64,000 bases of DNA from the NCBI RefSeq assembly GCF_044647545.1, contig NZ_CP172818.1, one strand, 5' to 3'. Both the position numbers and the translations under genes were made by a program. This document shows positions 1 to 58,419 of the stretch, one piece after another. Each line of letters opens with the position of its first letter. The stretch's first letter is position 1. Below the pieces are notes generated by a model. The model had not been told where the DNA came from. It made no database searches and was given only the letters and a program-made list of their open reading frames with translations. The stretch is from Escherichia coli. GTDB taxonomy: Bacteria > Pseudomonadota > Gammaproteobacteria > Enterobacterales > Enterobacteriaceae.

Positions 1-454
1 ACCGGTGATCTTGCAGCGTCTGCGCAGTTCGGGAGAATTACCCACGGCGCTGCGGACATCACTCGGCATTCAGCTCGCTCCTGCGCTGGTGGCCTGTAGT
101 GCCTGGCTGAGCGTCAACGGCGGCGAGGGTGACACGCTGGCGAAAATGCTTTTCGGTTATGGACTGCTGCAACTGCTGTTTATGCTACGTCTGATGCCAT
201 GGTATCTCTCCCAGCCATTTAATGCTTCATTCTGGAGTTTCTCGTTCGGCGTATCTGCACTGGCAACCACCGGTTTGCATCTGGGGATTGGCAGCGATAA
301 TGGATTTTTCCATACGCTGGCGGTGCCGCTGTTTATCTTTACCAATTTTATTATTGCAATACTGCTCATCCGTACTTTTGCGCTTCTGATGCAGGGAAAA
401 TTGTTAATCAGAACCGAGCGCGCCGTTTTAATGAAAGCAGAGGACAAAGAATGA
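1..454 (+). CDS. tehA: Tellurite-resistance / dicarboxylate-type transporter TehA, C-terminal part (5' end lies outside window)
   Basis: ORF 5..454 is open to the window edge; hydrophobic membrane segments; its stop overlaps the next start (ATGA). Confidence 0.85.
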
Positions 455-1044
455 TCATTCGTGACGAAAACTATTTTACTGATAAATATGAATTAACCCG
501 CACACACTCTGAAGTGCTGGAAGCGGTGAAAGTGGTTAAACCGGGTAAAACGCTGGATCTGGGCTGTGGCAATGGTCGTAACAGTCTTTACCTGGCAGCC
601 AATGGTTATGATGTTGACGCATGGGATAAAAATGCCATGAGTATCGCCAACGTCGAGCGCATTAAGTCCATTGAAAATCTGGATAATTTACACACCCGGG
701 TCGTTGATCTGAATAACCTCACATTTGATGGACAGTACGATTTTATTCTTTCGACTGTGGTGCTGATGTTCCTTGAGGCTAAAACCATCCCAGGGCTGAT
801 TGCCAATATGCAACGTTGCACTAAACCTGGCGGTTACAACCTGATTGTGGCGGCGATGGATACCGCTGATTATCCATGTACCGTCGGCTTCCCGTTTGCC
901 TTCAAAGAGGGAGAATTACGTCGATATTACGAAGGCTGGGAGAGGGTGAAATACAATGAAGACGTCGGCGAGCTGCACCGCACCGACGCCAACGGTAATC
1001 GTATTAAACTGCGTTTCGCCACGATGCTGGCACGTAAAAAATGA
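451..1044 (+). CDS. tehB: Tellurite methyltransferase TehB (SAM-dependent)
   Basis: 197-aa ORF with SAM-binding motif [15 protein letters not shown]; translationally coupled to tehA. Confidence 0.93.
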
Positions 1045-1346
1045 CCCGCTAAGAACAAGGCGCGTGAAAATTCCCCCCGCTGAGATGGTTTACTGTTCTT
1101 CTTTTCGGTAAGCATAATTTTTATCGAAGGGATGTGAAATTAATCACAGTAGTCGAAGTTTTTTAGCAGCTTAACTTACTGAAATTTAACTACTGATGAT
1201 TGACTTAGCCCCTTTTTCGGCATTGACTATGTCGTCTGTAAAGGGGCTGAAAAATTTATTTTCACCAACACTTTTTTTGCCACAACACGAAGCGGCGCTT
1301 TTTGCTATAACTTAAAAAGTAATATAATCATCTCAGGAAACTATTC

Positions 1347-55620: not shown

Positions 55621-56547
55621 CTACAGCGCCCGCCAGCACCGGATCTCACGTCCGTCCTCCCTTATTGTTAATGATTGCCGGACTTTACACCCGTGGGTTG
55701 CCAGAGGGCAACGTTCACGGAAAAAACAGCCTTGTGGCAACGTGCGGTTTCCTGGTAGATCCGTTTTACGTAATGCCCATTCTTCCTCCAGCGGTTTATC
55801 AATGGCGGGGAGGGAATCCAGCAATAATCGGGTGTATGGATGTGCCGGAGCTGTCAGCACCTGTTGCGCGTCTCCTAGTTCCACAATCTGTCCGAGATAC
55901 ATCACCGCCACCCGATCGCTCATATGACGTATCACCGAGACATTGTGTGAAATCAGCACATAAGTCAGCCCGCGATTTTCCTGTAGCGTTACCAGTAAAT
56001 TGAGGATCTGCGCCTGCACGGAGATATCCAGCGCCGAGGTTGGTTCATCAAGCACAATCACGTCAGGCTGCGAAGAGAGTGCTCTGGCAATGGCGATACG
56101 TTGCCGCTGCCCGCCTGAGAACGCATGGGGCAAGCGGTCGAGATACTCCGGACGAATACCCACCTGCACAGCCAGCTCCTCTGCCAACGCTCGCCGCTGT
56201 TGTTCACTACTACGCTTAGCAATCCAGAGCGGTTCCGTGATGATGCGCCACACCGGTAAGCGCGGATTAAGCGAAGAGAGCGGGTCCTGAAACACCATCT
56301 GCATAATGCGTTGTGATCCTGAACGGATGTACTGCCCGTGGCTCGGTTGCAGCATACCCATTAAAAGCTGTGCGAGGGTGCTTTTGCCGCAACCTGACTC
56401 ACCGACGATCCCTAAGGTTTCACCACGACGGATCTGTAAATCAATACCATTGATGGCATGAACATGTTCCGTAGTTTTACCAAGCCAGTTTTTTCGGGCC
56501 GGGAAATTGATATGGACGTCGCGTAACGTTAATAACGTGTCAGACAC
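55621..56547 (-). CDS. ddpF: Dipeptide ABC transporter ATP-binding protein DdpF
   Basis: Track ORF 55621..56601 (GTG-extended); GTG start preceded by AGGAGG gives 308 aa; Walker A GESGCGKST, signature FSGGQRQRIAIARAL. Confidence 0.9.
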   Translation of the reverse strand: MSDTLLTLRDVHINFPARKNWLGKTTEHVHAINGIDLQIRRGETLGIVGESGCGKSTLAQLLMGMLQPSHGQYIRSGSQRIMQMVFQDPLSSLNPRLPVWRIITEPLWIAKRSSEQQRRALAEELAVQVGIRPEYLDRLPHAFSGGQRQRIAIARALSSQPDVIVLDEPTSALDISVQAQILNLLVTLQENRGLTYVLISHNVSVIRHMSDRVAVMYLGQIVELGDAQQVLTAPAHPYTRLLLDSLPAIDKPLEEEWALRKTDLPGNRTLPQGCFFRERCPLATHGCKVRQSLTIREDGREIRCWRAL

Positions 56548-57526
56548 TAATGACCTCCTGCTGAGGATACCAACAGGCGCAGCGGTGGTTGTTGTCACCA
56601 CACGCTGTTAGCGCCGGGACGTTTTCACACTGCGCACCTGCCGCATAGCAACGATCGCGAAAAGCGCAGCCGTCAGGCAAATGGGTGAGGTTTGGTACCG
56701 TCCCTGGAATGGCGGGTAATGGCTGGCGCGGTATTCCATGTTCCGGTGCGCATTGCAGCAAACCAATGGTATACGGATGCCGGGGATGATGGATAACGTC
56801 TGCCGTCACGCCGCTTTCAATCACGCTTCCGGCATACATCACGTAAACGCTATCGCACAGTTGCGACACCACGGCCATATCATGGCTGATGAACAGTACC
56901 GCAGTTCCACTGGCGCGGGCTTTATGTTTAAGCAGACGCAGTACCTGCAACTGTACCGTGACGTCCAGCGCCGTAGTCGGTTCGTCGGCAATAATCAATT
57001 GCGGCTCGCAGGAGAATGCCAGCGCAATCATTACCCGCTGGCGCATACCACCTGAAAGCTCAAACGGATAGCGCGACATAACTTCCACGGCATCCGGGAT
57101 TTGCATCTCTTCCAGCAGGGCAATCGCTTTAGCTCTGGCTTCCCGACGACTTATTGGTTGATGATGGCGGATCACGTCCATCATCTGAAGACCTATTCGA
57201 CGTGTCGGATTGAGGGCGGTCATCGGTTCCTGAAAGATCATCGCCACTCGTGCGCCGCGCCACTGACGAAGCTGCTTTTCCCGAGCGTTAAGAACATCTT
57301 CTCCCAGCAGTGAAATATGTCCCCGATGTACGCAATAACTGCCCGTCGGTAGCAGACGCATAATCAACATTGCAGTGACTGATTTACCCGAGCCGGATTC
57401 TCCCACCAGACCGACAATTTCACCGCGGTTGATTTTCAATGACACATTGTTGAGCGCGTGAACGTCGCCGTTAAAACCGGGGAAACTCAAATGCAGTTGT
57501 TGAATGTCCAGAACGGGTTGGGTCAT
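56540..57526 (-). CDS. ddpD: Dipeptide ABC transporter ATP-binding protein DdpD
   Basis: 328 aa; Walker A GESGSGKSVT, signature LSGGMRQRVMIALA. Confidence 0.92.
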   Translation of the reverse strand: MTQPVLDIQQLHLSFPGFNGDVHALNNVSLKINRGEIVGLVGESGSGKSVTAMLIMRLLPTGSYCVHRGHISLLGEDVLNAREKQLRQWRGARVAMIFQEPMTALNPTRRIGLQMMDVIRHHQPISRREARAKAIALLEEMQIPDAVEVMSRYPFELSGGMRQRVMIALAFSCEPQLIIADEPTTALDVTVQLQVLRLLKHKARASGTAVLFISHDMAVVSQLCDSVYVMYAGSVIESGVTADVIHHPRHPYTIGLLQCAPEHGIPRQPLPAIPGTVPNLTHLPDGCAFRDRCYAAGAQCENVPALTACGDNNHRCACWYPQQEVISV

Positions 57527-58419
57527 GACTGCTTTCCTCCTGCTTTCGGGTCAAGCAGATCGCGAATACCATCGCCAAAGAGATTAAACCCGACGGCGGT
57601 AAGCAAAATCGCTGCCCCCGGAAATGCGCAATACCACCATTGATCGAGCACATAGTTGCGACCATTCGCCACCATCGCCCCCCATTCAGCACTCGGTTGT
57701 TGAGCACCAAGGCCAATAAATCCCAACGTGGCGGCCATTAAAATCGCGCTACCGATATCCAGCGATGCCTGCACAATCAGCGGCGGCAGGGAGTTACGTA
57801 AAATATGCCAGTTGATCAGATGCCAACGCGACGCACCAAAGGTTTTCGCCGCCTGAACATAGGTATACTGGCGAACAACTAATGTTTGCCCCCGCGCCAG
57901 GCGCACATAAAAGGGAATTCGCACAATAGCAATCGCCAGCATGGCGTTAAACAAACTCGGCCCGAGAGCGGCTGCCAGTGCCATTGTCAGTACCAGCGAA
58001 GGAATCGACAGCATAATGTCCATGATGCGCATGATAATCGCGTCTGCGCGTCCGCCAAGCACACCGGATAGACACCCGAGTAGCGACCCCATCATACCTG
58101 CAATGGCGACCACCACTAATCCGGCGAGAATTGATTGCTGACTGCCGACCAGTACGCGGCTGAACAGATCGCGTCCCACTTCATCGGTGCCAAACCAGTG
58201 CGCCGCAGAAGGCGGCAAAAGGCGGGCGGTTAAATCAATGGCGTTGGGATCATGCGTCGCCAGCCACGGTGAAAAAATCATCATCAATAGCATTAATACA
58301 ATGATGACTGCGCCGGTCACGGTGAGCGGGCTGCCTTTCAGCATCGATACCAGTTTTGCACCGTTAAATCGCGTTTGTTTTTGTGGGCGTACGGCGGACG
58401 TTTCCTCGCTTAGCATCAT
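57523..58419 (-). CDS. ddpC: Dipeptide ABC transporter permease DdpC
   Basis: 298-aa hydrophobic ORF; 4-nt overlaps on both sides. Confidence 0.92.
   Translation of the reverse strand: MMLSEETSAVRPQKQTRFNGAKLVSMLKGSPLTVTGAVIIVLMLLMMIFSPWLATHDPNAIDLTARLLPPSAAHWFGTDEVGRDLFSRVLVGSQQSILAGLVVVAIAGMMGSLLGCLSGVLGGRADAIIMRIMDIMLSIPSLVLTMALAAALGPSLFNAMLAIAIVRIPFYVRLARGQTLVVRQYTYVQAAKTFGASRWHLINWHILRNSLPPLIVQASLDIGSAILMAATLGFIGLGAQQPSAEWGAMVANGRNYVLDQWWYCAFPGAAILLTAVGFNLFGDGIRDLLDPKAGGKQS

Follow-up and report, generated by a model that had tools for sequence, protein, structure and literature searches.

Overlapping stop and start codons in six operons of the Escherichia coli tehA to dosP region

What does it mean for neighboring genes when the stop codon of one overlaps or abuts the start codon of the next? 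The question is raised by a stretch of the Escherichia coli chromosome of 64,000 nucleotides (nt) (contig NZ_CP172818.1; the whole stretch is hereafter called the window), which extends from tehA to dosP and in which a sequence-only reading had described widespread start/stop overlaps as indicating translational coupling. We estimate a probability of about 85% that the junctions are of the ordinary kind found inside operons, here six that are known in E. coli, and that the gene pairs are co-transcribed, with translation of the downstream gene boosted by upstream ribosomes. Both the phenomenon and these exact pairs are already known in the literature: the corresponding K-12 pairs are tabulated, with equal distances, in the supplementary data of Huber et al. 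(2023, PMC10666635).

The junctions and their start codons

The window is about 97% identical to the 1.500-1.565 Mb region of K-12 MG1655, whose coding sequences between 1,499,500 and 1,570,000 are collinear with it at nucleotide identities of mostly 94-99% (blastn). Both tehA and dosP are 5'-truncated at the window limits. The window thus belongs to an E. coli strain other than K-12. By megablast, its first 20 kb have a match in 5,423 of the 5,426 complete genomes of the species, and from about 30.4 to 44.5 kb the coordinates are identical to those of FDAARGOS_497. We carried the MG1655 coding-sequence coordinates over to the window by blastn, verified the start, stop and intactness of each open reading frame (ORF), and listed for every adjacent gene pair the distance from the upstream stop to the downstream start, with negative values for overlaps. 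This systematic listing recovered, at the sizes originally given, all of the junctions at tehA/tehB, ydcT/ydcU/ydcV, ydcZ/mnaT, fdnH/fdnI and in the nar and ddp operons, and the distances are the same in the window, in the K-12 annotation and in the annotation of FDAARGOS_497 by the Prokaryotic Genome Annotation Pipeline (PGAP). With ddpA/ddpB, the tight junctions are as follows, with Shine-Dalgarno (SD) sequences and their duplex energies (dG, in kcal/mol):

tehA/tehB, 451..454, + strand: distance -4, ATGA; SD-like AGAGGA 7-12 nt upstream; same in K-12 and FDAARGOS_497
ydcT/ydcU, 12411..12416 (12413/12414), + strand: distance 0, TGA abuts ATG; SD GAGGAGAGG within the ydcT 3' end, dG -9.3
ydcU/ydcV, 13345..13355, + strand: distance -11; ORFs intact; Met1 of YdcV coincides with Met1 of PotC and PotI in the alignment
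mnaT/ydcZ, 16911..16914, - strand: distance -4, ATGA; mnaT is the upstream gene; weak SD, dG -3.2
narY/narW, 36174..36174, - strand: distance -1, TAATG; paralogous narH/narJ -4
narW/narV, 35479..35482, - strand: distance -4, ATGA; SD GGGAGGTGG, dG -11.6; paralogous narJ/narI -1
narZ/narY, 37715..37718, - strand: distance -4, ATGA; SD AGGAGG, dG -10.3; paralogous narG/narH -4
fdnH/fdnI, 50204..50211, + strand: distance -8, overlap ATGAGTAA; SD GAGGAGGAG, dG -11.8; paralogous fdoH/fdoI -4
ddpD/ddpF, 56540..56547, - strand: distance -8, overlap GTGTCTGA; SD AGGAGG, dG -11.0; paralogous dppD/dppF -4
ddpC/ddpD, 57523..57526, - strand: distance -4, ATGA; supported by intact ORFs and SD ranking
ddpB/ddpC, 58416..58419, - strand: distance -4, ATGATG; the second ATG would give -1
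ddpA/ddpB, 59438..59442, - strand: +1 spacer, GTG start; tight without overlap; weak SD, dG -2.2

Ten of the eleven junctions listed earlier fall into the same-strand class of -8 to +6 nt, as does ddpA/ddpB at +1, while ydcU/ydcV lies just outside. Further tight junctions without overlap are fdnG/fdnH (+12), ddpX/ddpA (+13), ydcS/ydcT (+17) and ydcV/patD (+21). The SD of each downstream gene lies inside the preceding coding sequence, at its 3' end. Over 42 nt each, the junction sequences differ from K-12 at 10 of 504 positions (2.0%, against about 3% in the region, a number of sites too small to reveal additional constraint), and starts, stops and SD cores are unaltered.

Since the distances depend on the annotated starts, the argument that overlaps support the chosen internal starts is partly circular, and we therefore checked the starts independently. 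All in-frame ATG, GTG and TTG codons from the opening of the ORF to codon 40 were scanned, scoring anti-SD pairing in the 18 nt that end 3 nt upstream. The annotated start has the best or joint-best SD in ten of the twelve downstream genes (tehB, ydcU, ydcV, ydcZ, narY, narV, fdnI, ddpF, ddpD, ddpC), and strong matches, with dG from -9 to -12 kcal/mol, precede eight of the twelve starts. The ORFs of fdnI and ddpF open 60 nt farther upstream, and it is the annotated internal starts that have by far the strongest SDs (-11.8 and -11.0 kcal/mol), the one of fdnI ranking first among eight candidates. In narW, a single TTG scores higher, 27 codons downstream of the annotated start. The weakest start is that of ddpB (GTG, dG -2.2), whose junction the sequence-only reading had not named as an overlap.

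That the overlaps are artefacts of start choice, with the true starts lying farther downstream in genes that do not overlap, is in our view highly improbable. In-frame alternatives do exist: an ATG at +15 in fdnI (giving a gap of +7), a GTG at +51 in ydcV, GTGs at +42 to +51 in ddpB, which have a stronger SD than the annotated start, and an ATG at +6 in ydcU, two codons downstream and equally scored. However, apart from ddpB and ydcU the alternatives have much weaker SDs, and in six genes (tehB, ydcZ, narY, narV, ddpD, ddpF) the next candidate lies at least nine codons downstream and has little or no SD. Reassignment would in any case leave ydcU at 0 to +6 and ddpC, where an equally scored ATG follows one codon downstream, at -1, so that both junctions would stay within 6 nt. 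The independent K-12 and PGAP annotations agree on the starts. Further, comparisons with homologues place the N-termini at the same residues: FdnI residues 1-217 are identical to chain C of PDB 1kqf, NarV residue 2 aligns with NarI residue 1, the TehB crystal constructs start at the same methionine as annotated TehB, and the alignments of YdcV with PotC and PotI, of DdpD with DppD and of DdpF with DppF all begin at Met1. The ORFs at the junctions thus appear to be true protein-coding genes with correctly placed starts, and the earlier use of the overlaps in favor of the internal starts largely holds, now on the basis of SD ranking, PDB chains and paralogs.

Frequency of tight junctions and comparison with paralogous operons

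The tetranucleotide alone proves nothing, since an NTG overlaps the stop in the -4 or -1 configuration at 9 of 43 window stops (21%) that have no tightly following gene. The junctions are nevertheless genuine: a conserved protein of 150-514 amino acids (aa) begins precisely at each. Of the 12 genes that precede a tight junction, 9 end in TGA, against 10 of the 43 other genes, as expected from the ATGA arrangement.

Among the 34 co-directional adjacent pairs in the window, 10 overlap and 11 (32%) lie within -8 to +6 nt. In K-12, 707 of 2,987 unidirectional pairs (24%) do so, with -4, -1 and -8 as the three commonest co-directional spacings (Huber et al. 2023, PMC10666635). The tight junctions are thus not enriched in the window relative to K-12 (11/34 against 24%, binomial p=0.16), which is therefore typical, and 'widespread' is apt only as a description of the genome-wide norm. 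Among the 11 junctions at -8 to +10 nt, at least 7 connect subunits of the same complex (baseline 30.4%, p=0.02), the complexes being nitrate reductase Z, formate dehydrogenase N and two ABC importers.

Five paralogous operons of K-12 share their gene order with operons of the window and are likewise tight or overlapping at the equivalent junctions:

narGHJI: junctions -4, -4, -1
fdoGHI-fdhE: junctions +12, -4, -4
dppABCDF: junctions +307, +9, +10, -4
potABCD: junctions +13, -4, -4
potFGHI: junctions +94, +9, -4

The exact values differ. In the nar operons, -4 at narH/narJ corresponds to -1 at narY/narW, and -1 at narJ/narI to -4 at narW/narV; fdoH/fdoI overlaps by 4 nt and fdnH/fdnI by 8. Compared with dpp, the ddp operon has -8 instead of -4 at D/F, -4 instead of +9 at B/C and -4 instead of +10 at C/D, and the 11-nt overlap of ydcU/ydcV has counterparts of 4 nt in the paralogous permease pairs potB/potC and potH/potI. 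After these ancient duplications, the closeness of equivalent subunit genes has persisted while the exact size of the overlap has drifted, a pattern that would fit selection for closeness as such and not for any one sequence. On a broader scale, a published table of COG pairs covering 1,695 species gives median distances of -1 for NarG-NarH and NarH-NarJ and of -4 for FdnH-FdnI and DppD-DppF, with 301-366 genomes per pair; for the NarY-NarJ pair the median is -1 over 353 genomes (PMC10666635).

Co-transcription and translational coupling

Intergenic distance is a classic operon predictor. A zero or negative spacing cannot hold a terminator and a promoter, which makes co-transcription a safe inference, and we have high confidence that each pair is carried on a single mRNA. 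The overlaps thus bear out the operon calls for which they had been invoked. The operons in question are tehAB, ydcSTUV-patD, mnaT-ydcZ, narZYWV, fdnGHI and ddpXABCDF, which are listed in EcoCyc/RegulonDB. In a consensus scan of positions 34000-43500, which cover the nar operon, neither promoter-like sites (2, with 8.4 expected) nor terminator-like sites (10, with 10.3 expected) were in excess.

We have moderate confidence that ribosomes completing the upstream cistron raise the translation of the downstream one. Two routes could lead there. A ribosome that has just terminated might, whole or as its 30S subunit, re-initiate at the adjacent start; alternatively, it might keep the embedded ribosome-binding site free of structure, so that a new 30S subunit can bind. 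Both would help to match the output of complex subunits. Structurally, nothing sets the window junctions apart from the canonical overlaps of the -4 (ATGA) and -1 (TAATG/TGATG) type (PMC6728339, PMC10666635; reviewed by Brown & Wade 2025, PMC12548453): they belong to the same spacing classes (-4, -1, -8, 0), have their SD embedded in the upstream ORF and are enriched in subunits of heteromeric complexes; only ydcU/ydcV, at -11, lies just beyond the optimal range of -8 to +6 given by those authors. In dual-reporter constructs, strict coupling was seen in four of the five native E. coli -4 pairs assayed, although they possess SDs (Huber 2019, PMC6728339), coupling efficiency drops steeply as the stop-start distance grows (Huber et al., PMC6728339, PMC10666635), and short-distance pairs are 4.5-fold enriched in subunits of heteromeric complexes (Huber et al. 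2023, PMC10666635). The window pairs also resemble the coupled E. coli pairs trpB-trpA, trpE-trpD, galT-galK, rplK-rplA and rpmI-rplT, as well as prfA-prmC, hyfH-hyfI, astD-astB, ydbH-ynbE and menD-menH, all of which have adjacent or overlapping stop and start codons in one polycistronic mRNA. For these, direct evidence of coupling comes from premature-stop or reporter assays.

Several observations weigh against this interpretation, and most of them would favor a different picture, in which the genes are co-transcribed yet independently translated, a free 30S subunit binding to the strong SD of each gene, while the overlap arises as a side effect of compaction or of start/stop codon turnover and serves no coupling function. 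One -4 pair, bioB/bioF, initiated de novo and was uncoupled (Huber 2019, PMC6728339), so an overlap is no guarantee of coupling. Depletion of ribosome recycling factor left the ratios of downstream to upstream ribosome density unchanged, overlapping pairs included, which speaks against re-initiation as the main mechanism and led Saito, Green and Buskirk (2020) to favor de novo initiation genome-wide. Predicted accessibility of the ribosome-binding site is not below that of first genes: the mean probability of being unpaired over positions -15 to +6 is 0.42 at tight junctions and 0.43 in first or monocistronic genes (p=0.72). The folding energy over -99 to +30 is lower at tight junctions (-36 against -26 kcal/mol, p=0.0005), a difference confounded by the guanine-cytosine content of coding sequence, and neither measure tells unfolding by upstream ribosomes from independent initiation. 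A literature search on tehB, narW, fdnI, ddpF and ydcV yielded no coupling experiment on these pairs. The strong SDs at eight of the twelve starts (-9 to -12 kcal/mol) and the drift of overlap size among paralogs, from -4 to -1 and from -4 to -8 or -11, would likewise favor independent translation, and the overlaps may in part be the outcome of genome compaction and of a neutral mutational ratchet instead of selection for coupling.

Independent de novo initiation at most downstream starts is accordingly possible, and some of it is likely, because most of these starts have strong SDs of their own. As a full account of the junctions, however, we consider independent translation unlikely. It has to contend with the strict coupling of most of the tested native pairs, which had SDs as well, with the tightness kept across paralogs and across the several hundred genomes behind each COG pair, and with the enrichment of complex subunits among short-distance pairs. 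Further, the SDs at mnaT/ydcZ and ddpA/ddpB are poor, and these starts probably need help; due to this weakness, the two junctions would be the best candidates for true dependence on upstream translation, with the mnaT/ydcZ start standing to gain most from coupling.

A boost from upstream ribosomes, added to some independent initiation, remains our preferred reading. The mechanism is disputed between termination-reinitiation, which Huber et al. favored in 2019 and 2023 (PMC6728339, PMC10666635), and the unfolding of mRNA for new initiation. A stronger version, in which the junctions are strictly coupled, the downstream cistrons can hardly be translated at all unaided even though their SDs are strong, and the drift of overlaps between paralogs (-4, -1, -8, -11) tunes re-initiation and hence subunit ratios, seems improbable to us. 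If true, strict coupling could set distinct ratios, for example of NarW, a chaperone, to the structural subunits NarY and NarV, although the principle itself would still be a known one.

Other features of the window and the value of the junctions

Several further features lie in or next to the operons described above. The narV gene (34802-35482, - strand) has only 83.8% identity to K-12 narV, compared with 94-97% for its neighbors, and the divergence is centered on nt 300-540 of the gene (62-72% identity); in FDAARGOS_497, narV is 100% identical to the window allele. The gene is dimorphic in E. coli, with 1,290 records at 95% identity or more to the window allele and 4,111 at 80-90%. At several residues, window NarV is closer to NarI than K-12 NarV is. 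We considered gene conversion from narI as the source of the allele and ruled it out, as the divergent segment is just 57-72% identical to narI. The -4 junction of narW and narV is unaffected by the divergence. Upstream of narZ, the narU-narZ spacer (41456-41549) has 94 nt instead of the 81 nt of K-12, due to a 13-nt indel. In fdnG, the stretch 46849-46907 (+ strand) contains an in-frame TGA (46852-46854, codon 196) for selenocysteine, a known feature, directly followed by a match to SECIS_3 (84.3 bits), which is the sole Rfam match of the window at the gathering threshold. At 16464/16465, ydcY (+ strand) and ydcZ (- strand) converge with a spacer of 0 nt, their stops abutting on opposite strands, so that separate terminators have no room.

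The remaining features concern mobile elements, remnants and gene content, mostly in comparison with K-12 and FDAARGOS_497:

2317-3450, + strand: decayed remnant of the tnpB-like insQ of IS609, 91% identical to K-12 insQ, 75 nt shorter and with 17 in-frame stops in the K-12 frame; in FDAARGOS_497 the element is wholly absent
25736-31900, yncH to pptA: strain-variable segment with rhsE-like, ydcD-like and yncI-like remnants, its frames disrupted at many points compared with K-12; in FDAARGOS_497, a vgrG gene and ISEc1 lie between yncH and pptA
30398-31533, + strand: frameshifted transposase gene of the ISAs1 family (ydcC-like, H-repeat-associated), 1,136 nt, with ORFs at 30398-31003 and 31069-31533; also flagged as frameshifted by PGAP in FDAARGOS_497
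31913-32147: pptA (228 nt) ends at 32140, 3 nt before yddH, whereas the two convergent genes share 4 nt in K-12; the PptA C-terminus is altered through a 1-nt indel close to the 3' end
43248-44582, - strand: yddK and yddJ form one uninterrupted ORF of 444 aa, whereas K-12 yddJ is a separate pseudogene; in FDAARGOS_497, PGAP annotates a leucine-rich-repeat protein at 43248-44504

FDAARGOS_497 also has an additional ompC-like porin gene between yddL and yddG.

As for the junctions themselves, no co-directional spacings are more common in E. coli, or in prokaryotes at large, than overlaps of 4, 1 and 8 nt, and the window carries them at the genome-average rate. They bring no new biology; their value is that of a quality control of the annotation, in which the six operons prove to be sensibly called and the internal starts plausible.

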